The notes under the pieces were generated by a model. That model had not been told where the DNA came from. It saw nothing but the letters and a program-made list of their open reading frames with translations, and ran no database searches. The position numbers and the translations under genes were made by a program. Below, piece by piece: positions 3,071 to 57,047 of a DNA stretch of 64,000 bases; positions within the stretch are counted from its first letter, which is position 1; each line of letters opens with the position of its first letter. Source of the stretch: a bacterium (GTDB taxonomy: Bacteria; Hinthialibacterota; Hinthialibacteria; Hinthialibacterales; Hinthialibacteraceae); assembly GCA_963662285.2 (NCBI GenBank), contig CAXXMV010000001.1, positions 128,001 through 192,000 of the forward strand, written 5' to 3'.

Positions 3071-3095
3071 CGTTTTCTCTTTCTCCTTTCCTGGT

Positions 3096-4376: not shown

Positions 4377-4636
4377 AATTGATTCACCCTTCCTATCGAA
4401 TCCGCTAAATGCGCTTCGATATGATGAATTCAATTCTAACATATATTCAAACGATGAGTAAACCTGAAAGCGTTGGTTCAAGCAGTTATCATGATTATAT
4501 TAGTTTATAGAAATATAATCATTAAAACACTAAAGTATCTTTCAATCATGTTTTTGTTTGTTTACTATTGACAAGATATGTCTACATGTACCATCATCCA
4601 ATCTACAAGTAACAATGACTGTTTCAGGAGAAAATC

Positions 4637-29200: not shown

Positions 29201-32200
29201 TTACAATCTTCCATATACAGGCCGTATCCATCATTGCCGCCAGTGGAATTGTTCCAGAAGTTATATAAAGGAAGCAATTCCGACAAGAATTCCGCGTTTT
29301 CTATATTCGATAAGTGAATGCCATCATCACCCGCGCCATTAACCGTAAACAGTTCAATATGGAAACCATCCGTATTTGTGACGTATAGCCCTTTCCCTTC
29401 CGGGAAATACACATAGGTATTATCAAAACGCAGTGATTCGTTGTTGCCGACAATCTTTATCCCGTCTTCATGAAGAAAGGTGAAGATAGTATCAAACTCT
29501 GCATATTTAACGTTCTCGCATTCAATCGCCGATCCACCGGTTTTGGTTCTTTTTGTTAACCGGACCTCTGATTTTTGCAAGTTCGTGCCGATCTTGCAAT
29601 TCCGCATGAGGATCGAAATGTTCTCTTCAGAGTAATCGGAACTGTCCAAATTCCGAATTAACACGCCGCCCTCTGCGTTGTAACCCAAGGTGCACGAATT
29701 GATGTAGGTTCCGACAGCGTTGTTGGTTATGATGATTCCCCGACCCTTGTTATACCAGGCTATATCATCATCCTCATTATACACACGCCCGATCCAGCAT
29801 TCTTCAATGATGGTCTCTACACCGCCGTCGATGTAAATCCCATTGTTGACCGTTGAAATTTCAGAATCCCGAATAACTGTTTCACTGGCTCCATTTTCAA
29901 TATGGATGCCGTCACCTGTCATTGTATTGACAAAATCCAGGTCAAAATCTTTCTTGTAATCCATATCCGTTATTCTGTTCCCGGTTGTGTTAGGGCCGGA
30001 AATCAGAATTGCATGACCTTTGTTCAACGAGGCTATGAATCCGTTGATGGAATTGTGGGATGCGCCATTCATCAGCACTAAACCGTGCCCGTTGCCCATA
30101 GGACTTCCATTACCCTCAACTTCCATCCATTCAAAAATATTTTGCGCGTTGCCTTCTCCGCTTAAAACAATACCGTTTTTATCGTTGTTCCTTACATGAA
30201 CACTCGTAAACCGGTTGCCTCCCGATTCGTCTTCCATCAAAAAACCATTCTTTTTATTTCCTTCCACAATGACGCTTTCAAAAACATTGCCGTCTCCATT
30301 CACTATGTGGATGCCTTCTCCTCCGTTATTCATAACATGGATATTTTCAAATTTATGAAATCCTCCGCCAGTCAAATCGATTCCATTTTCACGGCAGTTC
30401 CGGATGCCGTGTTCGTCATCAATACTGGAAAGCGTGATATTTTCGGAATTCGTCCCATAAATTCCGTTCTGGCAGGAATCGATTGACAGGCGCAGCGTAA
30501 TAGCCTGAATGTCCTCCAGTGTTACGCCATTCCCGCTGCACTTAGAGATTGAATTATAAATGTTGATATTGTTTTGCTGGCTGCTGGTAATTCGGACTCC
30601 ATCGCCATTTGCGTCTTGAATCTTTTCCACGGAAATTTCATTCAGACCGCCGTTCTTGATATCAATGGCGTGACCCGGTGAATTAAGTATTGTATCTACC
30701 GTAACCTTCGCGCCAATCGCATCCTGCAACAGAATCTGAGCGTTTTCCACTGTTGCGGCGGAAATGGATGAACTATTTCCTAACTCAATGGAACCTTCCA
30801 TCTGTATTGAACCGGTTTTCATCAAACCCATGGGGATTTTTATAGCGCCAGTAACTTGAAGGCTCGATTTCCTGTCGATCTCGATTTCATCCTGGGGACC
30901 CAATTCAAATCCTGGACTGCGTATGGCATGTTCTCCTTGGATAGATATCCGTTCCCGTTTTTCGGCTGAAGGAATGCCCGAAAACCGGTCGCCTTCTTCC
31001 CGGTCGTCATCGGTTGCATCTTTCGATTCTGTTCGAATATTGGTCCGGGAGATTTCATTTCCTTGTTCGTCTCTGAGGACTTTCTCATATACTCTATATT
31101 CTAAGCCCACTCCGCCCGGAGACCGACTCGATCTATCTCCAACCTTGACTTCGACATAGTAATAGATGGGATTGTGATCGTCATCGTACCGGACGCGCCT
31201 TTCATTCTCCCAGATTTCTTCATGCAGTTCGTTGTCGTCGTCCCACCCATCAAGAAAAGGATTCGCCTCACCTTTTGCGAACATCACCGCCTCCGCGAGA
31301 GAAAGATGGCCATTTTTTACGATTCCATTCGTATAATCGGTTACGGTGATTCCACTTCCGGATGGCAGTCTTTCATAATCGGGACGCTCCAAACCCGGTT
31401 CCCGGATGATTTGCGTCCGGGCGGAACCACTCGGCGTCCAGATCGTGATTGGGACCGGCTCATTCTCCTCCCCCGATCCATTCATTTCGACGATAATTCG
31501 ATTCACAAACGTCTGGTAAACGGTTGCAAAATAATCCCCGATCATCACTTTGGCGTTGAGCAGATTATCACCGGCTATTTCAAAACGCTGTCCTTCTTTC
31601 GCTCGCTCCGCGGATAATCGGCTAATTTCAGGTTGGTCGAAAATATGGAAGGTCAGTTCGTTGCTCCTCTCGCCAGTATTTGGATTGAGAACATGTACCG
31701 GTACGTCTCCCCTCAGGCCTTCATGAACGTAGGAATACATCAGGTGATCATATCGACCGATTGTGTCTGTTTGACGCCAATCAAAAAACACCTCGTAAGG
31801 TTCTTCATCCGCGTCTTCTTGAAAGTTCATGCCTTCAATGCTGACCAGAGTTGAATCTTCATCATAAAATGGATTATCCGGATCGGTGGGTTTTGAATAT
31901 CCCCAATTGGGTTCGAGACGGCTAATAATGGGCTGGGCAGTTACATAAAACCGTTCACTGGCCGTCGCCCCGCTAGACGCCGCCGTCGTCTCTAAGCGGA
32001 CGCTGTAATCCTGGTGTTTCGTTAAGAAAGATGGCGCTTCAACCACCATTTCTCCCCGGTTGATTATTTCTACGATTCGGGCGCTGTAATTTCCAAAACG
32101 GACAGTGTTATCCCCCGGATCTAACTGAAAATTATTACCAAATATCCTGACCTGAGAATTCACGGGGCCTTCGGAAGGCGTAATACGTGTAATCGATGGA

Positions 32201-34389
32201 GAAAACGGATCGCCGATTTGCACGAAGCAACTCTCCAGCGGCGTCGGACCGGCGGGCGACAATTCGAGACCAAATACGTTGATTAAATATCCCATCAACG
32301 CTGCCGTGCGTTCAGCAACTTTTCCTATGGTAGAGATAGTTTCCAGAGTTCCTAGAACGCGGCTGTACGGAATCAGTAGAGAAGCGATCTCCTCTTTAAT
32401 GGCATCGGAAACGCTTGGCATGGCGAGAGCGTTTTCTACGATCTTTTCAGCGATTACTCTAATAATCGTAAAGATAATCTGTACTTGTTGCTCTTCATCC
32501 TGGGGCAGCGGATAAATCCGGAGTCCTTGAGCGTTCAAGGACAAAATTGATTCGTGAACGCTTTCGTCAATAATAGAAGTAACGTCGTCTCCCAATAGAT
32601 CGCCCAATACGTCCAGCATCCCGGCGGAAATATTCAAGATCAACGCCATCATAGCGTAGTTTGGTCCGTTGTCGATCGATTGGATTATTTCATGATCGCG
32701 GGGATCGTTATTACCCAGTGCGCCGCTATAAGCCCGGCACTCATATACACCCATGAATGAATCATTGATAGGGATCAAACGCTCCAGAGGTTCTTCCACA
32801 CCCAAAATGCTCGATAGCGCCACAATCGGCGCATCAACAATTACGTCGATCGCCTGCGAGGGAGAGATGTTTGACGCCCATAAGTTGGATGGCAGGAACA
32901 CGAGCGTATCGTTTGCCCAGGTTTCCGTTCTGCGGATACCGCGCCGGGCGGTCAAAAACGGATTTTTAAGTCCATCTGGCATATCCGTATAATCGACCGG
33001 GTAGAATGTCACAATCCATTCCAAAGGATTGTAATCATTCTGTACGCGATATTGTACTTGAACCGCGTCTTCATTGGAAATATTTCCCAAATCGACAAAA
33101 TCCATATCGGCCCGTTTTATCGTTGTTAAATTCGACGATGACTGGGCGGGTTGATTGAATTTCTCTGTATTGTGGTCGGGCAGGGAGAATGGCGAACTTA
33201 ACGGAATGGACCAGGGACGGTTCATGCTCTGCGATTGAATCTTCGCGGGCGGACTTCCCAAGTGAAGCACCATACTATCCGGCAGTTCCGTTAATATGGC
33301 GTAGATTGCTTCTTCCCATGCAGTTCCCACCTGATCGTCGTTCAATCCATCCGCGCCTTGGGGATAACGGTTGGCGATCGTTCTGGCAAATTCCTGTACT
33401 TCGGGAACCGTGTCGAGTTTGTCCATCACCCAACGGGCCGCATAAACGTTATTGGTTGCAAAGAAGGGATGCAAAAAAATCAGCGCTTTCGCTGTGGATA
33501 AGGCATTAATCTCCAGCGAATCGGCAACCTGACGCGTTCTAACTTTACCTGTCTGCTCATCAACTTCGATTTCGGGGAAAAGGAAAGCAAAATAGGTATT
33601 CTTACTGTCACCCGCAGGAACCGCTCCAACCAGGGACACGCTGTCCTGAGCGACAGTGACATCAAAATTACCTTCTGCATCGATATCACTCGTCTCATCA
33701 AAACGGTTCACGATAGTCAAATCAGAAAGATTGATACCGTCACCGGTTTCGATGACGCCCTGCACGGTTTTCGTTACGGTAAACGAATCGAGGCTGCTTG
33801 CCTCTCCGCCGGGTGTTATGATTTCAATAATTCCCGATTCCATATCACTGGATATTTCAATCAATAGGGATGAACTGGTTACCTCTAAAACAGGAACAGG
33901 AACGCCTCCCACTTCGACGATATTCAAATCGGGAGCCGTGCGTATAAAATTCCCGCCTTCGATCAATACACGCGTTCCTGGATTTCCAAATTTTGGATCG
34001 AATTGATGAATCACTGGTGCGGAAGCGTATAAGTTGCCATTTAATTCGGCTTCCGGGATCAGGCGTACGGAATAACGCAGAATCTGCCGGACGTCGTCTT
34101 CTGTTAATTGCCCGTCGCCAATAGGCCTGTCACCCGTTCCAGGATTGGGATAAACATCCCCTTGATCTTTTTGATCGTCAGTTAGTGTTTCCAGCCCGGC
34201 GATGGACCGGAGAAGTAGAAGAGCATCCCGGCCATCTATACGCCCATCTCCAGATACGTCTCCACGTTCAACCAGGATCTGCCCATTCAAGCATGGAGAA
34301 AAAAGAACGAAGAGCCCTAAAACGAAAAACACAAAAATTATTCTTTTTACGTGAAAAGAAATGAGTGATCCCCAATTACTCATGGCCAT
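26236..34389 (-). CDS. Giant secreted paralogue of 17075-25060 (dockerin ... beta-helix, TolB propeller, cohesin)
   Basis: GDVSGDGRIDGRDA and GDVYP...GDGQL dockerin. Shares STAKALxFxHPF, GRVAER/GKVAER, GDPFSP and GNTSEFGPT motifs with its paralogue. Ends TSVNSWMLY. The true start may be 34383. Confidence 0.8.
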   Translation of the reverse strand: MAMSNWGSLISFHVKRIIFVFFVLGLFVLFSPCLNGQILVERGDVSGDGRIDGRDALLLLRSIAGLETLTDDQKDQGDVYPNPGTGDRPIGDGQLTEDDVRQILRYSVRLIPEAELNGNLYASAPVIHQFDPKFGNPGTRVLIEGGNFIRTAPDLNIVEVGGVPVPVLEVTSSSLLIEISSDMESGIIEIITPGGEASSLDSFTVTKTVQGVIETGDGINLSDLTIVNRFDETSDIDAEGNFDVTVAQDSVSLVGAVPAGDSKNTYFAFLFPEIEVDEQTGKVRTRQVADSLEINALSTAKALIFLHPFFATNNVYAARWVMDKLDTVPEVQEFARTIANRYPQGADGLNDDQVGTAWEEAIYAILTELPDSMVLHLGSPPAKIQSQSMNRPWSIPLSSPFSLPDHNTEKFNQPAQSSSNLTTIKRADMDFVDLGNISNEDAVQVQYRVQNDYNPLEWIVTFYPVDYTDMPDGLKNPFLTARRGIRRTETWANDTLVFLPSNLWASNISPSQAIDVIVDAPIVALSSILGVEEPLERLIPINDSFMGVYECRAYSGALGNNDPRDHEIIQSIDNGPNYAMMALILNISAGMLDVLGDLLGDDVTSIIDESVHESILSLNAQGLRIYPLPQDEEQQVQIIFTIIRVIAEKIVENALAMPSVSDAIKEEIASLLIPYSRVLGTLETISTIGKVAERTAALMGYLINVFGLELSPAGPTPLESCFVQIGDPFSPSITRITPSEGPVNSQVRIFGNNFQLDPGDNTVRFGNYSARIVEIINRGEMVVEAPSFLTKHQDYSVRLETTAASSGATASERFYVTAQPIISRLEPNWGYSKPTDPDNPFYDEDSTLVSIEGMNFQEDADEEPYEVFFDWRQTDTIGRYDHLMYSYVHEGLRGDVPVHVLNPNTGERSNELTFHIFDQPEISRLSAERAKEGQRFEIAGDNLLNAKVMIGDYFATVYQTFVNRIIVEMNGSGEENEPVPITIWTPSGSARTQIIREPGLERPDYERLPSGSGITVTDYTNGIVKNGHLSLAEAVMFAKGEANPFLDGWDDDNELHEEIWENERRVRYDDDHNPIYYYVEVKVGDRSSRSPGGVGLEYRVYEKVLRDEQGNEISRTNIRTESKDATDDDREEGDRFSGIPSAEKRERISIQGEHAIRSPGFELGPQDEIEIDRKSSLQVTGAIKIPMGLMKTGSIQMEGSIELGNSSSISAATVENAQILLQDAIGAKVTVDTILNSPGHAIDIKNGGLNEISVEKIQDANGDGVRITSSQQNNINIYNSISKCSGNGVTLEDIQAITLRLSIDSCQNGIYGTNSENITLSSIDDEHGIRNCRENGIDLTGGGFHKFENIHVMNNGGEGIHIVNGDGNVFESVIVEGNKKNGFLMEDESGGNRFTSVHVRNNDKNGIVLSGEGNAQNIFEWMEVEGNGSPMGNGHGLVLMNGASHNSINGFIASLNKGHAILISGPNTTGNRITDMDYKKDFDLDFVNTMTGDGIHIENGASETVIRDSEISTVNNGIYIDGGVETIIEECWIGRVYNEDDDIAWYNKGRGIIITNNAVGTYINSCTLGYNAEGGVLIRNLDSSDYSEENISILMRNCKIGTNLQKSEVRLTKRTKTGGSAIECENVKYAEFDTIFTFLHEDGIKIVGNNESLRFDNTYVYFPEGKGLYVTNTDGFHIELFTVNGAGDDGIHLSNIENAEFLSELLPLYNFWNNSTGGNDGYGLYMEDCKNISVTNAYISRNGKDGVRAVNCDTVNFKDFWVSESDQNGFVLNGCKNFVFDMFEIVKSLAWGIWMENSKNVELIGESRSLNFKWGFQMNQNEEGCIKIDNCQDIIMGENGLGGSLSGGGTSLWITGDQTRNVQVINCNIHRSENEAACLIQGGQDITIGSNNDKWGNYIEMNDNAGVLVQGENTRVRILGNAIGVPARYEKDPMASWGNQDGVVLEQGAKHNLIQGNLFLLNKRHGIYIRDGANTNSITRNRIKSNGENGIHVEGAASRFNHISQNSIYNNDGAGIRLNGGNDMVESPIITKVERQQRQVFGKVNQDAPDGSIVEVFADMDDEGEILIGLGMLFGKKFICQGFVPKGMKYHATITHPDGNTSEFGPTVIDIKTDPFLFSETSGGNTDLYLYNDTLKRPARITNDPAKDYDPSLSEDQNNVLFVSSRSGNPDIWHLTLDSFDLTSLTNNTAPDYDPVWMADGDHFLFVSDRDGNPEIYMQAVSESGGGEGGDSIVLSYFSGGDDPNAEIYARSDTMGNGLGTQFNYGPELLTEFQVYISADPAPIRWKIFPYANWQAKPDEILAEGEENITETGWHTISVGELQVPEQYIVMIYFEEDYKPQLGIASAGEEGHTWMHRYFENFDQWNLSKSFAQYVMMKAIAVDPAPAGPTRLTNDPGIDRYPAISPDGNTVAFTSTRAGNEDIWLMNTDGSNLINLTQGNGNSRQPSWSPQGSKIGFVSDRDGNPEIYMMNVDGGDAVRLTQNEADDTDPGWSQSGDRILYSTNRLGNYEINSLNVYNPVPHRVTIGTLDARYPETGAFEAQSLENRIPNKPMLTKTTQTMSVLEPLTVGEIALQMMDAEAKPGSVAEILLQLIGAQSLGNLDLEIAYNPVILSLVESPSLEFQTEHSLYEINPPDYPAHLTPVRLNWIGAEGLTSDLSEIRLNFMINEKTIHPDTVVSINNAEAYSVNLTPVSVIAKDAVITISGNETSVNSWMLY

Positions 34390-45389: not shown

Positions 45390-45426
45390 GTTACCCTCCT
45401 GCTTTTCTACAGTTTTTAGATAATTT

Positions 45427-45611
45427 GTAACTGGTCAGCCAATTGAAGTGCGTTATCCCTCCCCCAAGCCTGGGGGAAGTCAGGTGGGGGTTGATTCGTT
45501 GAAACGCAACCCCCCCTCTAACTCCCCCCAAACTTGTGGGAAAATTTTAATAAAAAAGCCTTGGATAAAACATAGTTATAGTGTTACTACTTCATATGGC
45601 TGACCTGTTAC
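45427..45611. mobile_element. 185-bp MITE with GTAA ends and 8-bp target duplication
   Basis: Left end gtaactggtcagccaattgaagt versus reverse complement of right end gtaacaggtcagccatatgaagt. Flanked on both sides by gataattt (45419-45426 and 45612-45619). Confidence 0.88.
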
Positions 45612-45899
45612 GATAATTTTTATTGCTTAACACTATTGCAAATAGTTCTTAGATGGTTGAATTATCTGAGTTTAATATTCAATCACAACAATCTGTTTTT
45701 TTCAATAGGACTCAAAAGAATTCAGATGAAGATTCGTTTTGATTATGTGATTTCTATACAGTTCCACATAATATTGAGCGTTTTATTCCTCAATATCGAT
45801 TGATTGGCGTGTTTATTTAAGGTGGTGAGAGTTTTATAATGGATAAATTCATGATGAACTGAATATCGATTTTTGGAATTTAGATAAATGGGATTCGAG

Positions 45900-46590: not shown

Positions 46591-47793
46591 CTAAATAACT
46601 GATCCTCGATATCAGACACATACAAAAGAATCATGTGAACTTTGATTTAGGATATGGACTTACATCCTCAAGAAACTGTTCAACCGACTGCATTAGCTTT
46701 TCCATTGATGGAAATTGATGATTTCTGGTAATGTTATCATGCAATTGCTTCCAAAGCGTTTCTATCTTGTTTTCGACTGGACTATAGGGAGGGAGAAAAT
46801 GGAGTTTTAATCGTTCTCCATGTTTTTTCATCCAACGCATTGTCTCCTGGCTCTTGTGGATAATGTAATTATCCAAGATAAGGTGAATCACGCGATATCG
46901 ACGATAGCGATAGAGAAGGTCCTTCAACATATCAATGAATAATTTGCTGTTCTTTCGTTTCTCCACCGTCCAAGTCACATTTCCCGTTTTTATATTCAAT
47001 GTCCCGGCGATATAACGTTTTTCATTGACGCCCGGTGTGGGTATTTTTTTTTGTTGATTGGGCAACATATAATCACTTCCTATTCGAGGATTGAGATCAA
47101 CATCTGCTTCATCCTGATAAAAAATCGTTTCGTCATGCGGCATATTTTCCACTAAACGGTGAATCTCTTCAATTCGTTTTTTACGCCCTTTAATAGGGAG
47201 CCTGAGCACCGGACACGCTCGTCTGCGATGGATGTTCAGCCTACGAAGCATTTTCCCCAAGTAGGTTCGCGATAATTCTATCCCGGTTAATTTTTTCATC
47301 TGTTTGGTTAGAAGTTCCTGAGTCCAGGTACTGCGATTCCAACCATAATCTCGAGGAGATTTAGGTATTAATTGTAATAAAGTTGTCAAATAATCAGATG
47401 TGACTTTGCTGGGATGAGCCTCCAATCGTTGATCTTTTAATCCTTGTTCTCCTTCTTCCCGGAACTGGTTGAAAGTTTTGTACACCATTGATCGGGCGCA
47501 CTTTACAGTACGTCGAATATCAGTAGGCGATCTGTTTTCAGCTAACAAAATGATGATTTGATATCGCTGACGAGTATCGGCGCAACGGATTTTTTTTGAT
47601 TGACGCATCAATTTCCTTTTGACTTGCCGTGATATTTTGAATATAATTTGTAACATCAGAAGGCCTCCTTTGGGATTATGATTGATGTCATATCCACATT
47701 ATAAGGGAGGTCTTTTGACTTGTCTGGCCTTTCTGTAACTTATTAGTTTGTTTTTACTTACATAGTGTCCGAGATTTTAAATCATCTATTTAG
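46591..47793 (-). mobile_element. IS630-family insertion sequence
   Basis: Imperfect terminal IRs ctaaataactgat...cagacac and ctaaatagatgat...cggacac around the transposase. Ends are accurate to a few bp. Confidence 0.8.
46631..47656 (-). CDS. IS630-family DDE transposase
   Basis: HTH region with WT motif, YQDEAD, LILDNYIIHK, FLPPYSPVENKIE. Confidence 0.93.
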   Translation of the reverse strand: MLQIIFKISRQVKRKLMRQSKKIRCADTRQRYQIIILLAENRSPTDIRRTVKCARSMVYKTFNQFREEGEQGLKDQRLEAHPSKVTSDYLTTLLQLIPKSPRDYGWNRSTWTQELLTKQMKKLTGIELSRTYLGKMLRRLNIHRRRACPVLRLPIKGRKKRIEEIHRLVENMPHDETIFYQDEADVDLNPRIGSDYMLPNQQKKIPTPGVNEKRYIAGTLNIKTGNVTWTVEKRKNSKLFIDMLKDLLYRYRRYRVIHLILDNYIIHKSQETMRWMKKHGERLKLHFLPPYSPVENKIETLWKQLHDNITRNHQFPSMEKLMQSVEQFLEDVSPYPKSKFT

Positions 47794-49226
47794 GCGAAGG
47801 CGTCATGTTCCTTCTCCAGGAAGCCCTGGATGCGGTTTATAAAGCCTTTAATGTTTACCCAGGTAAACCGGAGAAATACCCTACCTTCGAAGACATTCTG
47901 GAATGGCTGGAAAAACACCCTGCCAAAGGCCGAAAAGCTCTTTGGATGGATTCCACCATGCGAGGCGTAAAATCCATCTGCTTCGGTCACATGGGAAAAG
48001 TCGTCAACACCGCCGTTCAACCAAACCTCGCGTCGCTCCTAGAGAAAAACGTGATCCTGGAATTAGACGGCCTCACCAATGCCGATAAAACCTTCATCAT
48101 CGAATCACTATTGCTCTGGATTCACCATTACCGCCTAGCACAACCACAACGGGAAACCTTCAAGCACGCCATGATCATCGAAGAAGCCCACCACATCCTT
48201 TTAAAAAGAACTGGCGGTCAGGGAGGAGAAGCAGTCACCGACACTATCCTGCGAGAAATCCGCGAACTAGGCGAAGCCATCATCCTGGTCGATCAACACC
48301 CCAGCCTGATCTCCATCCCCGCCTTGGGAAACACCTACACAACCATCGCCATGAACCTTAAACATCGATCAGATGTCAACGCCATCGGAGCAGCCATGTT
48401 GATGGATAACGAAGAAAAAGACATCTTTGGACGTCTCCCCATCGGAATGGCGGTCATCAAACTCCAAGGGCGCTGGCTACAACCATTCCAAATCAAGATC
48501 CCACACCGAAACATACCAAAAGGAGCAATCAACGATTCAAAACTCGCCTGCATCATGAAAGAGAGAAATCCCTTTTCGAATCAAAAACCAGATAAATCGA
48601 GCGTAAGTATCCAACCGGAAGAACAACCAATCGAATTATCCGAGAAAGAACTCGGATTCCTCGTTCACGTACACGAGCAACCGTTCCTCGGAACTGTCGA
48701 GCGCTACCGGCAATTAAACCTAAGCCGCCGTAAAGGAAACGCGATCCGGCAGCAATGTCTGGATAAAGGCCTACTTAAAACAGTCGATATCCCCACTAAA
48801 AGCGGCAAAGTTGTCCTCGTCGAGTTATCCGAGAAAGGAAGAAAACAACTCGTCTTACTCGGACACACCATCCCGAATCGATCTCGCTGGGGAAGCACGG
48901 AACACGAGTTCTGGAAACACAAAGCCGCAAGAAAAATCAGAGATCGAGGATGGAAAGCGGCAATCGAAGAATCCAACCAAGGATTTACCGATATCGTTGC
49001 AACAAAAGCAAAACACAAAATCGCGGTTGAAATCGAAACCGGCAAGTCAGACTGGCGATCCAACATTCAAAAAAACATCCAAAGCGGATTCAAAAACATA
49101 CTGATCCTGGCCACAAACCAAACCACACTCCAAAAAATCACCCAAGAAATCCTGGAAATGAAAACCAAAATCAACATCAAAACCATAACAGCCCAAGAAT
49201 TCCTGGAATTACCCGAAACAAAATGA
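47794..49226 (+). pseudogene. 5'-truncated HerA/VirB4-like P-loop ATPase fused to winged-helix and PD-(D/E)xK-like domains
   Basis: Walker B IIEEAH, LREIRELG, VDQHP, C-terminal GFTDIV...IAVEIETG. No Walker A, and the reading frame runs directly into the IS630 end. Confidence 0.7.
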
Positions 49227-49469
49227 AATAAGTCAAAACTCGAAAAAGAAGGATGAATTGAAGAGATATCACCGATTCCAAAGCGAAATGGTCGATTAAA
49301 CTGATATAGAGATAGTATTAGGTCATTCCCTCTAATGATAAGAATCTTGGAATCCAAGCGGAATCTCCGATTCAGACTTCAATTCCAAGATTCTATGATC
49401 AATATCCAAAGAGGATATCTCTGTATTTATAAAAATCTGACTACATTTTTTTCCTTCTCTGTTATTTCG

Positions 49470-49496
49470 ATTGAGTGATTAAAAAGTGTGTTAAGA
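49470..49496 (+). other. attI-like site / 5' core site of the first gene cassette
   Basis: GATTAAAAAGTGT-GTTAAGA. GTTAAGA (49490-49496) is the exact reverse complement of TCTTAAC, which opens the attC at 51620. Confidence 0.55.
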
Positions 49497-49506
49497 CAAT
49501 AAAATC

Positions 49507-49535
49507 TTGAAATTCACTAAAATGTGTCGTAACAT
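49507..49535 (+). promoter_or_regulatory. Sigma70-like promoter inside the first cassette
   Basis: TTGAAA - 17 bp - TAACAT, about 45 bp upstream of the GTG start. Confidence 0.45.
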
Positions 49536-49580
49536 ACTTAAAACATTTAATTAATTGAAAGTCGAAGAACAAAGGTTCTA

Positions 49581-51596
49581 GTGAAAAGAACACCAATCAG
49601 TCAAAAAACAGTGAAACGTCTTTTCGCGGCCTCTGGCGGAATTTGTGCATTTCCAGGTTGCAATACGAGACTGGTTGATCCAGATTCTGGTGCACTACTC
49701 GGTGAGATGTGCCATATTCACGCTGCTTCACTTGGCGGTCCGCGATATGATCCTTCATTATCTGACGATGATCGAAATAAAGACAGCAACTTGATTATTC
49801 TCTGCCCTACCCATCACAGCCTAATCGATCAGGATGAGGAGACTTATACCTCAGCAAAGTTGAAATCCATCAAAAATACCCACGAAGAGACTGTAATTGC
49901 GATTTTATCCGCAAGCAACACATCGACTATCAAAGAAACTCAGACTTCAGACCTTGCTCGCCAAATTGATTCTGAGTCGGTTGATTTTGCTATTGTGGTA
50001 GCACTCAAAAAAGAATTTGAGGCATTACAACACTACATACCTGAACTTGAACAAGTCACAAGTACCAACGAAGACATGCGGTCATATTACAAAGCAACAC
50101 TTTCTGCAGTTGGAGGTAGCTGTTACAGAATAGTTGTTACCCTATTACCAACTATGGGTAATCTCGATGCTGCACATGCAACAGCTGATTTAATCAATCG
50201 CTGGAATCCACGATACATTCTTGTTACGGGATTAGCAGGAGGTCTGAACCGACAATCTCAGAATTTTGGTGATATTGTTGCTTCTGAAGCGATTGTTTAC
50301 TACGAGCCGGGGAAAGTGCAAGATGGCACAATTGAACCTAGAAACAGACAGTTCTTAGCAGACCGTCGGCTTCTCGATGGATTGCAGAATCTTCGGGACA
50401 CAAACTGGAAGTATTCACTTCCAGAACGCCCTGATGGTAAACCTTCATCCATTGAAATTCCGAGAATACACATTGGCCCAATCGCATCTGGTGAGAAGGT
50501 TATTGCATCGGATGAAGAAGTTTCCAGGCTTTTGTCAAGTCAACGTAACCTAATCGGTATTGAAATGGAGAGCGCAGGAGTGGCTTCCGCCGCTTTTAGT
50601 GCTTTAAAAAAGATTGGATTTATCACCATTAGATCGATTTGTGACTTCGCAGATAACCAGAAAAACGACAACTGGCATTCATATGCGGCACATGCAGCCG
50701 CGGCTTGTCTCCGAGCATTCCTAGTGAGTCGTCCAGTTGGACCATCCGAAGGAGATTGGCCCACACCCCAAACCAGAGGTGAATCTCTTTCGGAAGATCC
50801 TTTAAAACAGAGAAAATTACTTTTTAATGAATTATGCTCGGCTTTTGATATGGAAGATTTTAAGAGTTTTTGCTTCGTCCTTGGGGTGGACGTAGATGAA
50901 TTACCTGGTGATAAGAAATCGGCAAGAGTAAGGGAACTGATATTGCTTTTCGAGCGACAAGGACAAATAGATGCCTTGGAGGAAGCGTTCAGCGATTTCC
51001 GTTTTAATTCAATCGATACTCAGATTAACAACGTAGAAATTATTCAATCAGAGAAAAAAGATAGCATACTACTTAAAGATTACTTTTTAATTGGATGTGG
51101 GATTGGAAATCGCATGGTTATTTTACCAGTTCCACCAGGAAACGCTGAAGACAAAGCTTTATCTGAGTTTGCAGAAAAACTTCATAAACTTGATTTAGGC
51201 AATTCCGAAATACCACAACGGCTTTCAAATATCGCGAAAACTTTGGCAGACAATGAAAACAAGGAAAAAGTCAAATCTGCTTTAGATCAATATTTTGATA
51301 TAATGAACGACTTACCAGATCTTATACACAAAGTAAGTACAGATGAACAGTATAAAGTTATGAACCTTGGTAAACTACTTTTTGAAATTCCAACACTTGC
51401 ATATATTGAAAAAAATAATAATGAGTTGTTACCAACAATTATTGCGTTAGAATCAATAGTGGCACAAGTCGAAATAACCCCAAATATAAAAAAAGAACTA
51501 CTAAATCATATAAAATCTATTCGTGAAGAAGAAGATTATGAATTGTTGATGGATCAGACAAACAAACTTTCAAGAACTATTTACATGGTGCTCTAA
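49581..51596 (+). CDS. HNH endonuclease - purine nucleoside phosphorylase/MTAN - effector-associated (EAD7-like) domain fusion, candidate defence protein
   Basis: SGGICAFPGC...CHIHA...GPRYD...NLIILCPTHH (HNH). AIVVALKKEF, TGLAGG, IASGEKVI, IEMESAG, IRSICDFAD (PNP_UDP_1). FDMEDFKSFCFVLGVDVDELPGDKKSARVRELI (EAD7-like). Confidence 0.85.
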   Translation: MKRTPISQKTVKRLFAASGGICAFPGCNTRLVDPDSGALLGEMCHIHAASLGGPRYDPSLSDDDRNKDSNLIILCPTHHSLIDQDEETYTSAKLKSIKNTHEETVIAILSASNTSTIKETQTSDLARQIDSESVDFAIVVALKKEFEALQHYIPELEQVTSTNEDMRSYYKATLSAVGGSCYRIVVTLLPTMGNLDAAHATADLINRWNPRYILVTGLAGGLNRQSQNFGDIVASEAIVYYEPGKVQDGTIEPRNRQFLADRRLLDGLQNLRDTNWKYSLPERPDGKPSSIEIPRIHIGPIASGEKVIASDEEVSRLLSSQRNLIGIEMESAGVASAAFSALKKIGFITIRSICDFADNQKNDNWHSYAAHAAAACLRAFLVSRPVGPSEGDWPTPQTRGESLSEDPLKQRKLLFNELCSAFDMEDFKSFCFVLGVDVDELPGDKKSARVRELILLFERQGQIDALEEAFSDFRFNSIDTQINNVEIIQSEKKDSILLKDYFLIGCGIGNRMVILPVPPGNAEDKALSEFAEKLHKLDLGNSEIPQRLSNIAKTLADNENKEKVKSALDQYFDIMNDLPDLIHKVSTDEQYKVMNLGKLLFEIPTLAYIEKNNNELLPTIIALESIVAQVEITPNIKKELLNHIKSIREEEDYELLMDQTNKLSRTIYMVL

Positions 51597-51619
51597 ACAT
51601 GCAACAATTTCTAAAAATA

Positions 51620-51726
51620 TCTTAACAATGCTGAGCGGTTCGTACCTTTGCTCCCTCGCTAAGCTTCGGGAGAACAAAAACACTCGATCGGAATCCCTAC
51701 GGGCATCGCTCAGCGCCGCATTATCT
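51620..51726 (+). other. attC site 1 (107 bp, core G mutated to A)
   Basis: TCTTAAC...GCTGAGCG...tttgctccc/gggagaacaaa...CGCTCAGC...ATTATCT forms an extended imperfect hairpin. Confidence 0.7.
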
Positions 51727-51732
51727 CCTAAT

Positions 51733-52746
51733 ATGATGCCACAAGAATATTCAGAAGATTTTGAGACTAAAAATGCAAACTTTGACCGACCCCATATAAT
51801 TTTGCTGGGCGCTGGTGCAAGTTATGCGGCATTTCCTAATGGGGATCGTAATGGTAATAAGTTACCTTTACTTAGAGATTTTGTGAATGTAATTGGCTTA
51901 GAAAAAGAAATGAAGGAAGCAAAAGTTTCTCCACCATATAAGGATTTTGAAAGCATCTATTCAGCAATACATTCTAATCCAGACTTAATACGAGTCAAAG
52001 AATCTATTGATAAGAAAGTTACCGACTACTTTTCAAACTTAGAATTACCCGATGAACCAACCCTGTATGATCACTTGGTTCTTTCTTTAAGGCCAAAAGA
52101 TGTAATCGCTACTTTTAACTGGGATCCTTTTCTATGGGATGCCCTTCATCGTAATCATAAATTTACAGAGGGCCCCTGTGCTCTTTTTTTACATGGTTCG
52201 GTAGCAATATCCAGGTGCCCTGCTTGTGAAATAGTGGTTTCTCGTAGCGCTATAAGATGCCATAAATGTGCTGTCGATCTTGAAAATATTCCCATTCTTT
52301 TCCCTGTAGACAAAAAAGAATATATAACAGATCCTGTTATTGCTGGTTACTGGCGTACTTTAAAAAGAGCCATGAAGATTGCTTGGGTATTTACCGTATT
52401 CGGTTATAGCGCACCAAAGACTGACGTGGAAGCTATAGCACTTCTAAAAGAAGGATGGGGTAGTGCTAATAATCGAGAGTTAGAACAGATAGAAATTATT
52501 GATATCGTAGATGAAGATGCTCTAATAAAATCATGGGAAGAGTTTATACATACTCATCATTATTCTGTTTTAGATGATTTTTATAAATCTTTTGTTGGTG
52601 AGCATCCTCGAAGGAGTTGCGAGGCGTATTGGAATCAAAATATGGAATGCATGTTTATAGAGCCTTACCCAATGCCTCATAATGTACAATTCAATGAACT
52701 TTATGATTGGTTACGACCTCGAATAAATGCTGAGAAAAAGAGATAA
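51733..52746 (+). CDS. SIR2-like (sirtuin-fold NADase) protein with CxxC/CxxC insert, candidate defence protein
   Basis: LLGAGAS, ATFNWD, LHGSV, CPAC...CHKC, FGYS. Start moved to MMPQ because the longer ORF runs through attC1. Confidence 0.82.
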   Translation: MMPQEYSEDFETKNANFDRPHIILLGAGASYAAFPNGDRNGNKLPLLRDFVNVIGLEKEMKEAKVSPPYKDFESIYSAIHSNPDLIRVKESIDKKVTDYFSNLELPDEPTLYDHLVLSLRPKDVIATFNWDPFLWDALHRNHKFTEGPCALFLHGSVAISRCPACEIVVSRSAIRCHKCAVDLENIPILFPVDKKEYITDPVIAGYWRTLKRAMKIAWVFTVFGYSAPKTDVEAIALLKEGWGSANNRELEQIEIIDIVDEDALIKSWEEFIHTHHYSVLDDFYKSFVGEHPRRSCEAYWNQNMECMFIEPYPMPHNVQFNELYDWLRPRINAEKKR

Positions 52747-52807
52747 CAAAGCGCTCGTTCGGACGCAAACTACTCTTCGCTTGCGCCGCACATCTTAAAC
52801 GTTAAGG
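52741..52807 (+). other. attC site 2 (67 bp)
   Basis: AGATAAC (contains the SIR2 stop) aaagcgctcgttcggacgcaa...ttgcgccgcacatcttaaac GTTAAGG, a typical attC layout. Confidence 0.85.
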
Positions 52808-52820
52808 AGGAATCACAGCC

Positions 52821-53861
52821 ATGAGCAGGCCGATCTTCATAAGTCATACCGTAGCGAACAAAGAGTTGGCCGATAAGTTTGTGGATCTCCTTGAGACCGG
52901 CGTCGGAATTCCCGACCGTGATATCTTCTGTTCGTCGTTGGAAGGCATGGGAATCCCAAGTGGCCGAAACTTCGTGGATTTCATTCGCGCCCAAATCAAA
53001 GAGCCACGTGTTGTGATACTCCTGCTGTCGCCACAGTATTTTGATAGCCAATTTTGCCTCTGTGAGCTGGGAGCTGCTTGGGTTCTTACCCACCAGCTCA
53101 TCCCACTGCTTGTCCCGCCTCTGGAGTTCAGTGACGTGAAAGCTGTTCTTACAGGAGTCCAAGTCCTCAAGATCAATGACGGTGCCGCGCTCAACCAAAT
53201 GCAGCAGGACTTGATTGATGGCTTGAGTATCAAGGGCAAAGCATTTGCCCGATGGGAGGCCAAGAGGAACAAGTTTTTGGAGTCTATTGAGGGAATCGAG
53301 AAGAGTAGCCCGGTTGCTTCTACAGTCAGCCGAAAAGAATATGACGAACTGAAGCAAAAGTATGATGGCGCTGTGTCCGAAATCGAGTATATGGGTGAAG
53401 AGATTGAGGAGAAAGACGGACTGATAGAGAAACTAAAATCTGCGAAAGACTCAGAGGATGTGAAGGCCATTGTCGCAGAATCTCTCAGCGAAAGAGAGCA
53501 ATTTGATGAGATTGTCTATCGGGCGAAGAACGCTCTGAAACCGTTGCCCTCAATTGTGGAAGAAGCACTGTATTACCATTTCCGAGATGAGTATCTCCCT
53601 TGGCCAAACCCGTTAGATAACGACCGAAAAGACGAAGTCAATCAGGCTATCGAGGAGGACTATTTGGAGGGCCGTGATGAAGGTGTCGAAGTGGTTGAGG
53701 AGGATCCTCGGATTGCCGGGGCCCGCTCGGAACTCTGGGAACTCCGGTCATTTGTGAGCAGTATTGACGAGGAATCAGAATTCAACGACTACTATTCAGA
53801 AACGTATAGTCACCGACTCAATTTCGAGTCGAGACGCTTTTGGGATACACATCTATTTTGA
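52821..53861 (+). CDS. TIR-domain protein with coiled coil and acidic C-terminal domain, candidate defence protein
   Basis: IFISH, IFCSS, GRNFVDFI, SPQYFDSQFCLCELGAAW (catalytic Glu). The AGGAGG RBS overlaps the cassette core site. Confidence 0.9.
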   Translation: MSRPIFISHTVANKELADKFVDLLETGVGIPDRDIFCSSLEGMGIPSGRNFVDFIRAQIKEPRVVILLLSPQYFDSQFCLCELGAAWVLTHQLIPLLVPPLEFSDVKAVLTGVQVLKINDGAALNQMQQDLIDGLSIKGKAFARWEAKRNKFLESIEGIEKSSPVASTVSRKEYDELKQKYDGAVSEIEYMGEEIEEKDGLIEKLKSAKDSEDVKAIVAESLSEREQFDEIVYRAKNALKPLPSIVEEALYYHFRDEYLPWPNPLDNDRKDEVNQAIEEDYLEGRDEGVEVVEEDPRIAGARSELWELRSFVSSIDEESEFNDYYSETYSHRLNFESRRFWDTHLF

Positions 53862-53905
53862 CCTTAACAATGCCTTACACCCGGACGGTGAAGGCCGCGT
53901 TCAGT
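53862..53905 (+). other. attC site 3 (shortened, 44 bp)
   Basis: CCTTAAC aat GCCTTACACC cggac GGTGAAGGC cgc GTT. The inner arms pair with one extra (extrahelical) base and the central loop looks deleted. Confidence 0.75.
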
Positions 53906-54032
53906 AAAAGAAGATGTAAAAGAAGAAGATGATGTTGATCTTGAAAAGGAAAAGAAAGAAGCAGAAAAAACAATTATCAAATACTGGAATGAAACAAAAT
54001 AAAATGGCCTAATCCGCGGTTCCACCTGCCCG
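53906..54032 (+). pseudogene. Remnant of a fourth cassette (gene 3' end plus left half of an attC)
   Basis: KEDVKEEDDVDLEKEKKEAEKTIIKYWNETK* ends at 54002, then GCCTAATccgcggttccacctg resembles an attC left arm with no right arm. Confidence 0.45.
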
Positions 54033-54198
54033 CTTCAACATCTTTTTAACCAATCAATAATTAGAAAATCGTTACTTTTATATAGTAGTGACAATTCTCC
54101 TTTTCTCATGGAAAAGGAAACCACTAAACAACGATATTATCATATCTCGGACTTCTTGGAGCAGCAGCTGAGAGAGATCAACCTGAAAGTCGAACATC

Positions 54199-54795
54199 TC
54201 ATTTTCCGGTTGCGGTATGAAGATCCACCAATCTGGATGAAACGCGATGAGAACAGAGAAAGCGATCAAGGTTGACGGTTTCCCCTTGCAGAACGGAAAC
54301 AACTGCGTCTTCTAATTCATTCTTCCAAGTTTCGATCCCCGATTCATTTATCTGAAAGACGCCGCCGTGATATTGAATGACTCCCTCTGAATCGAGTACA
54401 AAAACCTCCGGCGTAATTGTGGCTCCAAAATATTTCGCCGTTCCCCCCGAAGGATCTCGGTATATAGGGAAAATGATGCCGTTGTTTTGAGCGTACTCTC
54501 TGAGTTCATCACCGGTCTCTTCTTCATTGAAACAGAGGCCGACAAACAAGAATTCTTGTAAACGGTATTCGTTGTGTATGGTGATGACGGCGTCCAAAAC
54601 ATGATCGGTATACTCACAACGACTCGACAGGAAGACAATCGCTATCCCTTTTCGCTCGTTAAAATTATCAAGGGAAATGCTGGCACCGTTGATCGTTAAA
54701 ACATCGAAGGATTCAATGCGTCTTTCTTCAGCAGTAAAAGCATTGGGTATTGAAATAAAAAAGATAGCAATTGCGACCATGAGTGTCTGAAACAT
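54199..54795 (-). CDS. Secreted redoxin/thioredoxin-like (AhpC-TSA) protein, C-terminus possibly disrupted
   Basis: Signal peptide, VFLSSRC, FPIYRD, FGATITPEVFVLD, YHG. GGAG RBS before MFQT. Confidence 0.7.
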   Translation of the reverse strand: MFQTLMVAIAIFFISIPNAFTAEERRIESFDVLTINGASISLDNFNERKGIAIVFLSSRCEYTDHVLDAVITIHNEYRLQEFLFVGLCFNEEETGDELREYAQNNGIIFPIYRDPSGGTAKYFGATITPEVFVLDSEGVIQYHGGVFQINESGIETWKNELEDAVVSVLQGETVNLDRFLCSHRVSSRLVDLHTATGK

Positions 54796-55090: not shown

Positions 55091-55132
55091 AGCGGGAGAC
55101 GGGGTTCGAACCCGCGACCCTCAGCTTGGGAA
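55091..55132 (-). other. 3' half of tRNA-Gly(CCC), att-site-like fragment
   Basis: ttcccaagctgagggtcgcgggttcgaaccccgtctcccgct covers anticodon loop, T arm and acceptor 3' strand. There is no D arm or 5' half and no CCA. Confidence 0.8.
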
Positions 55133-55515: not shown

Positions 55516-57047
55516 GTAACGATTTAGTCTTCTGAAAAAATAAATTACACCGAGCGTTACTTCAGGGGCGGTTTCGAAGTTTTATGTAGTATGAACCGAA
55601 ACAAGGAAACCGCGCAGAGAATTCTCCAGGAAATCCTGAAAGGCGTACGGGAACTGACCGAAGAGTCGATTCGCGATCTCATTCAGGAAGACCCGGAAGC
55701 AGCAGTTTTTCTCATTCTCGAACAGGCCCTCCGACTCAAGAAGGCTCTGGCGGCGCAACAAACCAAGAAAATCAGTACGCCATCCGGGATGGTTCCTCCA
55801 TACGAGAAAACCGCCAAAGAAAAAAAGGATAAAAAACGCGGGCGAAAACGGGGACATCCTGGAAGCGGGCGCAAGAAAAACACGAAAATCACGAATCGAG
55901 TACAGCATCCTCCACTGGAGCGATGCCCGGATTGCGGAGGACCCGTCACTCCTTGCCAGGGCGAAACCGCCAAACGAACCCGCGTGATCGAAGACATCCC
56001 GGCGAATATCGAACCGGAGGTCACCGAACACGAAATTCCCCGCTGTTATTGCCCGCACTGCAAAAAACTGGTGGAGCCCAAAGTCGAAGACGCGCTGCCC
56101 AACGCGCGATTGGGAAATCGGGCGCTGGCTCTGTCCGCCCATTGGCACTATGGACTGGGAATGCCCTCCCGGCAGATTGTCGACCTCCTGAGCGGACACC
56201 TAAACACCGTCGTCTCTCCGGGAGGATTGTTCGGTATGTGGAAACGCCTAGCCGATTGGCTGCAACCGTGGTGCGAGCAGTTGATTGATGAAATGCTGGA
56301 AAGCACGGTCCTGCATGCGGATGAGACAGGCTGGCGCGTCAACGGGAAAACGCACTGGCTCTGGTGTTTCACCAACCCGGATGCCACGTTTTACATGATT
56401 CATCCCAGCCGGGGCGATCCAGCGCTGTTCGAATTTTTTCGGGAGACCTTCGAGGGCGTTCTGGTAAGCGATTTCTGGGCGTGTTACGCGCACGTCGACT
56501 CGACGCATCAGTATTGCCTGGCGCATTTGTTGCGCGAATTCAAAAAGGTGGATGGAACCAACGCATCGGCGGTTTGGAAAGAGTTTTCCAAGAAAGCGAA
56601 GCGGCTGTTTGGCGATGCGCTTCGATTGTACCATCGGGAGGGATACGATCCCCAACGGTTTCAATCGCGCATCGACCGGCTCCACGAACGCTTGATTGAT
56701 TTGATGCTGATTCAATCTACAGACAAGGATGTCAAGCGGATCGCCAAACGCCTGGAAAAATACTGGGACGAACTGTTGGTCTTTTTGACTCACCCGGAAG
56801 TTCCTCCCACCAACAATCACGGCGAACGGGAAATTCGCCCGGCGGTGATTATGCGCAAGATGATTCAAGGAAACCAAAGCGAAGCGGGAGCGAAAACGCA
56901 GTCGATTCTGATGACGGTTTTTCGCACTCTCAAACGCCGCGGCTACAATCCGGTGGACGCGGTGGTGGATTCGCTGAAAACCGCCATCCGCACCGGTCAA
57001 TTGCCCCCTTTACCATTTCCACTGCCTTCAAACAACTAAATCGTTAC
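55516..57047 (+). mobile_element. Intact single-ORF IS66-family element (ISBst12-like organisation)
   Basis: 13-bp perfect TIRs gtaacgatttagt / actaaatcgttac and 8-bp TSD taaatatc at 55508-55515 and 57048-57055. Confidence 0.95.
55591..57039 (+). CDS. IS66-family DDE transposase
   Basis: STPSG, GRKRGHPG, CPDCG/CPHC Zn finger, HADETGW, VSDF, QYCLAHLLR, TNNHGEREIR. Confidence 0.95.
   Translation: MNRNKETAQRILQEILKGVRELTEESIRDLIQEDPEAAVFLILEQALRLKKALAAQQTKKISTPSGMVPPYEKTAKEKKDKKRGRKRGHPGSGRKKNTKITNRVQHPPLERCPDCGGPVTPCQGETAKRTRVIEDIPANIEPEVTEHEIPRCYCPHCKKLVEPKVEDALPNARLGNRALALSAHWHYGLGMPSRQIVDLLSGHLNTVVSPGGLFGMWKRLADWLQPWCEQLIDEMLESTVLHADETGWRVNGKTHWLWCFTNPDATFYMIHPSRGDPALFEFFRETFEGVLVSDFWACYAHVDSTHQYCLAHLLREFKKVDGTNASAVWKEFSKKAKRLFGDALRLYHREGYDPQRFQSRIDRLHERLIDLMLIQSTDKDVKRIAKRLEKYWDELLVFLTHPEVPPTNNHGEREIRPAVIMRKMIQGNQSEAGAKTQSILMTVFRTLKRRGYNPVDAVVDSLKTAIRTGQLPPLPFPLPSNN

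Follow-up and report, generated by a model that had tools for sequence, protein, structure and literature searches.

We report on a 64,000-nt window of a genome from the Hinthialibacterota (G000:C1:128001-192000, the whole stretch of DNA that was analysed; numbers given below are positions in this window unless a contig is named), in which three genes lying head to tail on one strand quite probably form a small CALIN (a cluster of attC sites without an integron integrase), composed of three single-gene cassettes of defence type. The definition of a CALIN applies to this locus because it contains two attC sites and no integrase. As we envisage its origin, the integron integrase (IntI) of an ancestor or donor would have inserted the cassettes by attC recombination, each insertion leaving a cassette whose first six bases can pair with the R'' box of the attC site that it carries; the array would now persist among remnants of mobile elements, next to a hotspot of tRNA-Gly islands and in a genome that lacks IntI. 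The three putative cassettes occupy about 49491-51720, 51721-52801 and 52802-53899 of the + strand, and each would supply one predicted cell-suicide (abortive-infection) enzyme. The features of the array are as follows.

49490..49496, + strand: proposed left junction of cassette 1, GTTAAGA, from the sequence
49581..51596, + strand: cassette 1 gene, 671 aa, with HNH, PNP/methylthioadenosine (MTA)-nucleosidase-type and EAD7 domains and a helical domain X, from its open reading frame (ORF) and Pfam
51620..51726, + strand: attC-like site 1, atypical, from the sequence and unrecognised by models R1-R3
51733..52746, + strand: cassette 2 gene, 337 aa, a SIR2-fold protein with a four-cysteine ribbon, from its ORF, AlphaFold 2 (AF2) and Foldseek; the start is taken as the in-frame ATG at 51733
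52741..52807, + strand: attC site 2, from covariance models R1-R3
52821..53861, + strand: cassette 3 gene, 346 aa, a TIR protein, from its ORF and the Pfam family TIR_2
53862..53905, + strand: attC site 3, 44 nt, from covariance models and a fold z of -2.13

The principal evidence for cassettes comes from covariance models of attC sites. We built our own models because an Rfam scan of the window yielded zero matches. The models, termed R1, R2 and R3, were seeded and iterated from attC sites of other genomes and include no sequence from the window; their sources were 80 genome loci with relatives of gene 2 and 80 metagenome loci with relatives of gene 3, where the stop codon of many genes overlaps a TAAC box, after which come a hairpin and a GTT box. 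Seven seed sites made up R1, a search of the loci with R1 provided the 18 sites of R2, and a search with R2 provided the 50 sites of R3. When the 64 kb were searched with filters off, site 2 scored 45.8 bits with R1 (E 3.1e-8), 43.5 bits with R2 (E 3.2e-8) and 42.3 bits with R3 (E 1e-7), and it was found again in a whole-genome R2 search at E 3.6e-6. Site 3 rose from 14.3 bits with R1 (E 0.76, rank 4 of 9 matches, with two unrelated window sites at E 0.14 and 0.43 above it) to 16.8 bits with R2 (E 0.12, rank 2 of 7) and 22.8 bits with R3 (E 0.0051, rank 2 of 8). Beyond sites 2 and 3, neither R2 nor R3 found anything in the 64 kb under E 2.3, the third-best match of R3 having an E value of 3.5. 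At both sites the model matches lie on the gene strand, and their ends are exactly those foreseen in an earlier, sequence-based description of this DNA (hereafter the initial annotation). The two sites are 1055 bases apart on one strand.

Three other approaches to the sites were tried and set aside. Two MAFFT alignments, one with 13 attC sites and one with 10, had central parts of insufficient quality for modelling, and the seven-site seed was used instead. A strict pattern scanner had rules so tight that all three sites were missed, and a fold-based picker returned downstream attC candidates at 7 of the 80 loci, some of them doubtful; both were replaced by the covariance models. As a separate observation, a 26-nt palindrome at 1976-2001 (AGATAACAATGC...GTTATAT) imitates both attC R boxes on either strand (E about 3) and is too short for a site.

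The anatomy of the array can be read directly. All seven heptamers are present at their stated coordinates, namely GTTAAGA at 49490, TCTTAAC at 51620, (A)TTATCT at 51720/51721, AGATAAC at 52741, GTTAAGG at 52801, CCTTAAC at 53862 and GTTCAGT at 53899. In site 2 the stop codon TAA of the gene lies inside the R'' box AGATAAC, the R' box is GTTAAGG, and the inner stem contains mismatches. Site 3 consists of R'' CCTTAAC, L'' GCCTTACACC, L' GGTGAAGGC and R' GTTCAGT, with one unpaired T on the bottom strand, and its bottom-strand fold is more stable than that of most shuffled sequences (z -2.13, with 6 of 200 shuffles as stable). Among the 79236 AAC...GTT candidates of a crude stem scan of contig C1, site 2 ranked within the best 1.9% and site 3 within the best 1.3%. 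AAC and GTT boxes thus occur in two of the three sites; site 1 has AAC but ATT. Read by eye, site 1 comprises the R'' box TCTTAAC, the spacer AAT as in site 3, a perfect 8-bp stem (GCTGAGCG/CGCTCAGC) with zero unpaired bases, GCCGC and finally ATTATCT. In the related genome G014, a cassette array (contig G014:C89) has, where an attC would stand, a copy of site 1 that is 88% identical and likewise ends in ATT. Site 1 is probably an atypical, disabled attC. To the left of the array, the 100 nt upstream of 49490 fold no better than shuffles (z 0.03) and have no match with R1-R3, and because a hairpin is absent there, the junction at 49490 may be of attI-like or secondary-site type.

Comparative evidence indicates that relatives of genes 2 and 3 travel as cassettes elsewhere and that the three gene families do not travel together. 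R2 found attC sites in 15 of the 80 genome loci of the gene 2 family, and in 11 of the 80 the site starts no more than 6 nt from the stop codon. One homologue of gene 2 is surrounded by eight attC sites in 6 kb (L047), another lies between two attC sites in a cassette of 1083 bp, as compared with 1081 bp here (L059), and a third is followed by an attC closely resembling site 2 (L038). For the gene 3 family, attC matches were found in 6 of the 51 metagenome loci searched and at the stop codon in 4 of 33 full-length loci. Throughout the loci of both families, the model matches whose orientation could be read were on the same strand as the gene (44 of 44). None of the 80 SIR2-family loci contained a relative of gene 1 or gene 3, and none of the 80 TIR-family loci a relative of gene 1 or gene 2, such that the three gene families are independent of one another and do not constitute a fixed three-gene operon, which agrees with the initial annotation. 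Likewise, the three genes had no DNA matches in 40 related genomes, where the only part of the array with a match was the site-1 hairpin, in G014.

Base composition also shifts along the array. The SIR2 gene, described beforehand as AT-rich, has a GC content of 36.7%, as opposed to 48.8% for the TIR gene, for which about 50% had been stated, and at third codon positions (GC3) the two genes differ further, with 25% and 54%, respectively. Gene 1 has 43.5% GC overall, falling to 31.1% in its last 579 bases.

Several results weigh against a three-cassette CALIN with a role in defence. Site 1 is unrecognised by all three models, a local search matching it only partially, at the R'' end and with 6.7 bits, and it has ATT at the crossover triplet, where GTTRRRY is expected. 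The proposal that an attC-type hairpin follows each gene is therefore borne out for sites 2 and 3, by models built from foreign sites and with exact ends, but not for site 1. Site 3 itself was not among the four matches of the whole-genome R2 search, in which 150 of 1482 candidates were scored, and simple arithmetic turns its E value of 0.005 in the window into about 0.6 for the 7.3-Mb genome. Folding of the bottom strands, which had been put forward as a check, distinguishes site 3 but not sites 1 and 2, whose folds are shuffle-like (z -0.69). The complementarity between cassette starts and ends had been taken as the footprint of integration, and although the heptamers are indeed present, they are weaker evidence than was assumed: among the 5212 ORFs of at least 150 aa in the genome, the rule is met at 7 of 7 bases by 82 (1.6%) and at 6 of 6 bases by 381 (7.3%), many of the ORFs that pass doing so with A-rich words. 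A shared 10-mer, YTAACAAWGC, has 57 copies in the genome, which is about the number expected by chance according to our estimate and represents no enrichment. Promoter-like sites number 8, not above the 11.1 expected by chance. With respect to gene content, the family of gene 2 has no PADLOC match, and to our knowledge no member of this SIR2-like family has been tested experimentally. Furthermore, a whole-genome search for EAD7 (PF19960) in the assembly, which is 92.5% complete, returned gene 1 itself as its one match. Since the chance controls are weak, the case for a CALIN stands on the covariance models together with the comparative evidence and not on the heptamers alone.

The proteins of the three cassettes are unrelated and carry domains of the kind employed in defence, as judged from Pfam, PADLOC, Foldseek and Protein Data Bank (PDB) matches. 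The calls of HNH, PNP, SIR2 and TIR domains made in the initial annotation were all upheld, by Pfam for genes 1 and 3 and by Foldseek of an AlphaFold model for gene 2. PADLOC, which had been suggested as a check, was divided in its outcome, matching genes 1 and 3 but not gene 2. By inference, the three genes would be expressed, their products would have the predicted enzyme activities, the C-terminal halves could sense phage, and the cell might be protected against phage.

Gene 1 encodes an HNH domain (residues 1-110), a PNP/MTA-nucleosidase-type domain (118-381), EAD7 (414-470) and domain X (about 480-671, bases 51018-51596), and would combine a predicted HNH DNase with a PNP-type nucleosidase of the family that includes the ATP nucleosidases Cap17 and DtcC. 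Its Pfam matches are HNH_2, PNP_UDP_1 (75.3 bits) and EAD7, its PADLOC matches are PDC-M60C (4.4e-43), PDC-M68A (1.2e-32) and a "PN-superfamily" effector (4e-25), and its sequence matches in the PDB are an HNH endonuclease, SAVED-HNH proteins and nucleosidases of MTA and S-adenosylhomocysteine (SAH). Alignments show H45, N70 and H79 of the HNH domain and E328-S331 and D355 of the PNP domain to be invariant, and we take all of these to be catalytic residues. Fusion of HNH/PNP to EAD7 is a conflict-system architecture according to Kaur et al. 2020 (PMC7159879), who portray EADs as adaptors, each pairing with another copy that a partner protein carries. As EAD7 has no partner in this genome, the self-containedness of cassette 1 is weakened; the suggestion that every gene is a system in itself is plausible for the SIR2 and TIR genes and doubtful for gene 1. 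Either domain X replaces the EAD7 partner or the effector is an orphan. PNP_UDP_1-family domains are also known as ATP nucleosidases in CBASS and Detocs, in the form of Cap17 and DtcC (Rousset et al., bioRxiv 10.1101/2023.01.24.525353).

The nine closest relatives of gene 1 among the matches listed are 68-78% identical and 473-484 aa in length, and the seven of these that were aligned end at about residue 479, immediately before domain X. The additional 190 residues of gene 1, although encoded by AT-rich DNA, make up a genuine domain, X, which has 47 relatives and is C-terminal in every one. Among 20 of these that were scanned, its partner is TIR in 7, and a trypsin-like peptidase, an alpha/beta hydrolase and Trans_reg_C (a winged-helix DNA-binding domain) occur singly; such fusion to varied effectors fits a shared regulatory module. 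The AF2 model of domain X is all-helical, with a predicted local distance difference test score (pLDDT) of 87.3. Foldseek found nothing better than E 0.57 for this fold, a wide VIA-align search reached Z values up to 8.6, a range that is common for helical bundles, and a protein atlas search gave no usable match. Domain X has no similarity to the C-terminal half of the TIR protein (E 1.4). The bases 51018-51032, just past the end of the close relatives, read GATTAACAACG and by eye resemble an attC R'' box plus spacer, at the place where GC drops from 43.5% to 31.1%. Gene 1 could have arisen by the in-frame joining of two earlier cassettes; at the point where the relatives end, the covariance model found no vestigial attC within the gene. 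No relatives of gene 1 were found in the sets searched (400 genomes around a Vibrio genome, 5 SIR2-cassette genomes, viral contigs). On plasmids, a relative was found on 20 records, 14 of them from Agrobacterium, with 44% identity in the ten listed, and in the one record examined it adjoins a 1155-aa protein without detectable similarity to EAD7 or domain X.

Gene 2 is without a match in Pfam (where SIR2 and SIR2_2 give nothing at E <=0.01), PADLOC or NCBIfam, and a search of its protein against PDB sequences brought up nothing relevant. Its AlphaFold model (pLDDT 87.3), however, is matched most closely by Foldseek (E 3.5e-8, template modelling score about 0.5) to the SIR2 protein that forms an antiphage complex with HerA and to sirtuins, and by its modelled fold the protein belongs to the SIR2 superfamily, making it a predicted NADase. 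Residues invariant across 27 sequences include N129 and H154, which presumably are catalytic, as well as C162, C165, C176 and C179. The family is large, with 4575 homologues and relatives in 379 species genomes of many phyla. In a literature search on SIR2 in integrons, none of the papers listed dealt with a SIR2 cassette. We tentatively suggest, at somewhat less than an even chance, that the gene 2 family could be an uncharacterised stand-alone, NAD-depleting anti-phage system travelling as a one-gene cassette and, separately, that domain X could be a new phage-sensing or regulatory module taking the place of the EAD7 partner.

Gene 3 encodes a TIR domain (residues 2-157) followed by a conserved C-terminal half of 190 residues without a family match. 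The Pfam TIR_2 match scores 47.6 bits against a cut-off of 28, the PADLOC match is spbK (model PDLC03825, E 8.2e-36), and the PDB entry 9phb of SpbK is matched at E 1.1e-13. There are 257 homologues, the close ones being equal in length, and E82, presumably a catalytic residue, is invariant in 23 sequences. The protein is thus a predicted NADase with an SpbK-like TIR domain. Only residues 4-157 align to the SpbK model (150-306 of its 308 positions) and residues 2-150 to PDB 9phb (137-286); gene 3 is not an SpbK orthologue, since the TIR domain alone matches and the domain order differs.

To search for an integrase, TIGR02249 was applied in six frames to the whole 7.29-Mb assembly (92.5% complete), with a cut-off of 265 bits. 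The genome has no IntI by this measure, in agreement with the initial annotation: the best match reached 73.6 bits, none of the 15 matches lies in the window, and the stronger ones cover only the parts of the model that flank positions about 182-243. The same annotation had called the array shufflable, a claim that we do not retain in view of the lack of IntI in the assembly, the model-negative site 1 with its ATT and the mismatches in the inner stem of site 2. Because the genome lacks IntI, the array is probably frozen, not active. Within a sample of 35 genomes of the phylum, IntI is full in one (G019, 484 bits) and partial in one. The full G019 gene (G019:C28:20641-21585, locus L024) adjoins an AlpA-like ORF and, by eye, a tRNA gene, and no attC match was found in the 18-kb stretch searched around it, about 16.6 kb of which is upstream.

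Cassette arrays without an integrase are not confined to this locus. The same genome has a second CALIN at G000:C6:1800745-1803410 (positions 2246-4911 of locus L189), on the - strand, with three or four attC sites scoring 80.4, 49.8, 20.8 and 11 bits and a cargo of four ORFs (166, 218, 416 and 142 aa) without Pfam matches and with marginal PADLOC matches (E 0.002-0.007). A HigB/HTH pair adjoins this second CALIN. The CALINs of relatives (G014:C89, G014:C112 and G001:C119) hold toxin-antitoxin cassettes. There is also a lone attC-like match of 32.8 bits at G000:C1:772067-772141, on the - strand, about 1 kb downstream of an Xer-like recombinase gene, which is the best, sub-threshold match to the IntI model in the genome.

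When alternative explanations are considered, the one that retains real cassettes and denies them an anti-phage role is the least remote, although we regard it as rather unlikely. The three genes would then either stabilise the array or island, as toxin or addiction modules, or act in the metabolism of NAD or nucleosides. The arrays of relatives do carry ParE/RelE, HigBA and HepT/MNT pairs (as read from translated ORFs), the functions of all three proteins are predicted only, the SIR2-like family is without a PADLOC match, and in NCBIfam the PNP domain comes closest to an MTA/SAH nucleosidase with a housekeeping role (92 bits, far under the cut-off of 169). On the other hand, genes 1 and 3 are matched by candidate-defence models of PADLOC, HNH plus PNP plus EAD7 is recognised as a conflict-system architecture (PMC7159879), and the ORF list contains no antitoxin-like small ORF beside any of the three genes. 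We consider it unlikely as well that there are two true cassettes, with 51620-51726 being either no attC or a dead one and the HNH-PNP and SIR2 genes forming one composite unit closed by site 2, in which they might cooperate. Several features of site 1 speak for this: its failure with R1-R3, its R' box of ATT, the lack of an unpaired base in its stem and its shuffle-like fold. Nevertheless, GTTAAGA at the left junction complements TCTTAAC at 51620 and not the AGATAAC of site 2, which is instead complemented by TTATCT at 51721, the SIR2-family gene is a single-gene cassette with attC on both sides in L059 and L047, relatives of gene 1 are missing from all 80 SIR2-family loci, and in the G014:C89 array the place of an attC is taken by the 88% copy of site 1.

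An ordinary three-gene operon or single system, whose hairpins would be terminators or generic palindromic repeats, is highly improbable. The shared strand, the short spacers, the weak hairpin folds and the non-trivial background of the complement rule are what such an operon would predict, but it would not explain why models made from foreign sites match sites 2 and 3 with exact ends, nor why the SIR2 gene and its homologues in other phyla are followed by homologous attC sites. It also sits poorly with three families that never co-occur in the two sets of 80 loci, with the difference in GC3 between the SIR2 and TIR genes, and with the lack of DNA matches to the three genes in 40 related genomes. 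A CALIN of three cassettes, partly decayed, accordingly remains the reading that we favour.

In several respects this array resembles the CALINs described by Cury et al. 2016 (PMC4889954): two or more attC sites share a strand with under 4 kb between them, intI is absent from the neighbourhood, the cassettes are few, the cargo is non-clinical, and insertion sequences (IS) lie in the vicinity. It departs from them in that one site is atypical (ATT-ended and model-negative) and another only 44 nt long, and it differs from a complete, active integron in having no IntI with attI. Phage-defence cassettes of mobile integrons have been termed BRiCs (Kieffer et al., bioRxiv 10.1101/2024.07.02.601719). 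Like these BRiCs and the cassettes of chromosomal integrons, the array stacks compact, mostly single-gene defence functions as attC cassettes, whereas it has no integrase, no recognised Pc promoter and an environmental host from a small phylum, and is known from sequence alone. "SIR2" and "TIR" are absent from the main text of that preprint.

Sedentary chromosomal integrons reportedly act as biobanks of defence functions, a finding attributed to Darracq and colleagues in Science in 2025. Turning to the individual proteins, gene 3 is like SpbK in its related TIR domain and in being a stand-alone protein, but its TIR domain is N-terminal (2-157) where that of SpbK is C-terminal (137-306), and its 190 C-terminal residues are unmatched. 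Gene 2 has the same fold as defence SIR2 proteins (SIR2-HerA, PDB 8w9l and 8wld) and sirtuins, along with the four-cysteine ribbon and the invariant Asn and His, and differs in an identity of about 15%, in the lack of a HerA partner and in occurring elsewhere as a stand-alone cassette. Gene 1 is comparable with Cap17 and DtcC (10.1101/2023.01.24.525353) and with Cap5-type HNH proteins in that its architecture is of immune type, with a PNP_UDP_1 domain and with an HNH domain whose relatives include SAVED-HNH proteins; unlike them, it has no SAVED or SLOG sensor and no cyclase and places both effector domains in one protein. As an effector with EAD7 it is similar to the EAD-linked effectors of vWA-MoxR/NTPase conflict systems covered in PMC7159879, except that the genome has no second EAD7 and that a helical domain follows EAD7 in the same protein.

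Defence cassettes in integrons have already been published (Kieffer et al. and Darracq et al. in 2025), and this array leaves current views on the workings of integrons and of defence islands as they were. What the case adds is a clean example from a little-sampled phylum, with the integrase gone, together with two leads: a widespread SIR2-fold cassette family that is missed by current family libraries, and a C-terminal helical domain that is common to several effector types.

The surroundings of the array agree with the decayed mobile island proposed for it, featuring an IS630-type transposase gene, a truncated DUF87/TraG-type ATPase gene, an IS66-family transposase gene and a tRNA-Gly fragment. 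The features concerned are the following.

46631..47656, - strand: IS630-type transposase gene with DDE_3 and HTH domains (Pfam DDE_3, E 7.2e-27), just upstream of the truncated ATPase gene
47805..49226, + strand: HerA/TraG-type P-loop ATPase gene that lacks its 5' end, with weak matches to HerA and CedD
49192..49432, no strand assigned: left flank repeat, 240 bp, with an 18-nt inverted repeat (49341-49358 / 49377-49394), from DNA matches
54046..54270, no strand assigned: right flank repeat, multi-copy, about 225 bp, from DNA matches
55091..55132, - strand: 3' fragment of tRNA-Gly(CCC), from a 26-mer match, about 1.2 kb downstream of the array
55591..57039, + strand: IS66-family transposase gene (Pfam DDE_Tnp_IS66, E 1.2e-43)

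The ORF at 47805-49226 corresponds to the 3' two-thirds of a 660-aa DUF87/TraG-type ATPase, and its tail is nuclease-like by eye. Relatives with 72-80% DNA identity are found in G017, in G012 and as four copies in G016. The two G016 copies with ORFs listed are 660 aa long, one that was scanned having DUF87 and TraG P-loop domains, and at the two G016 loci with scanned ORFs, ArdC and MoxR/vWA genes adjoin the ATPase gene, with no SIR2-domain gene. This HerA-like ORF was considered as a SIR2-HerA partner of gene 2; the pairing was rejected because the ORF is mobile-element debris, a truncated, multi-copy ATPase from which the SIR2 gene is separated by cassette 1.

Both flank repeats also border cassettes or toxin-antitoxin genes in relatives. 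The left repeat is matched at 91% in G014:C112:2245-2445, where a model-supported attC follows about 1.3 kb on, and at 85% in G001:C95. The truncated ATPase gene takes its final 11 codons from this repeat, which could, purely as a possibility, be a remnant of attI or of a promoter region. The right repeat is matched at 84-87% at one place in G014:C89 (2010-2236) and at two in G001:C119, and more weakly in G017 and G016, and in L019 it begins 32 nt after a model-supported attC. A possible ORF of 55-58 codons (MEKETTKQRYYHISDFLEQQL...) lies in this repeat, which in relatives stands after attC sites and before reverse-oriented toxin-antitoxin genes; in the window it overlaps the last 23 codons of an AhpC-like gene. 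No terminal inverted repeats join the left and right flank repeats.

The window has no tRNA gene. The 26-mer of the tRNA-Gly fragment occurs in four copies on contig C1, one of them inside the intact tRNA-Gly gene C1:299180-299252; the tRNA-Gly(CCC) copies lie at 55091-55132 of the window and at C1:205572, 277989 and 299183, and tyrosine recombinase genes stand beside two of them. The fragment is an attachment-site scar of integrative elements. Because it is a piece of tRNA-Gly, its 42-nt core is 95-100% identical in dozens of genomes. Tandem islands of integrative type, about 21, 72 and 22 kb in size, are marked out by three such fragments and the intact gene, and the cassette array is found just outside the outermost fragment.

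Elsewhere in the window, 45420-45622 contains a repeat about 190 bp long, of which the genome has at least 6 further copies at 92-95% identity and relatives have weaker ones, and which is probably a small non-autonomous mobile element. There are also two giant ORFs, at 17075-25060 on the + strand (2661 aa) and at 26236-34389 on the - strand (2717 aa).

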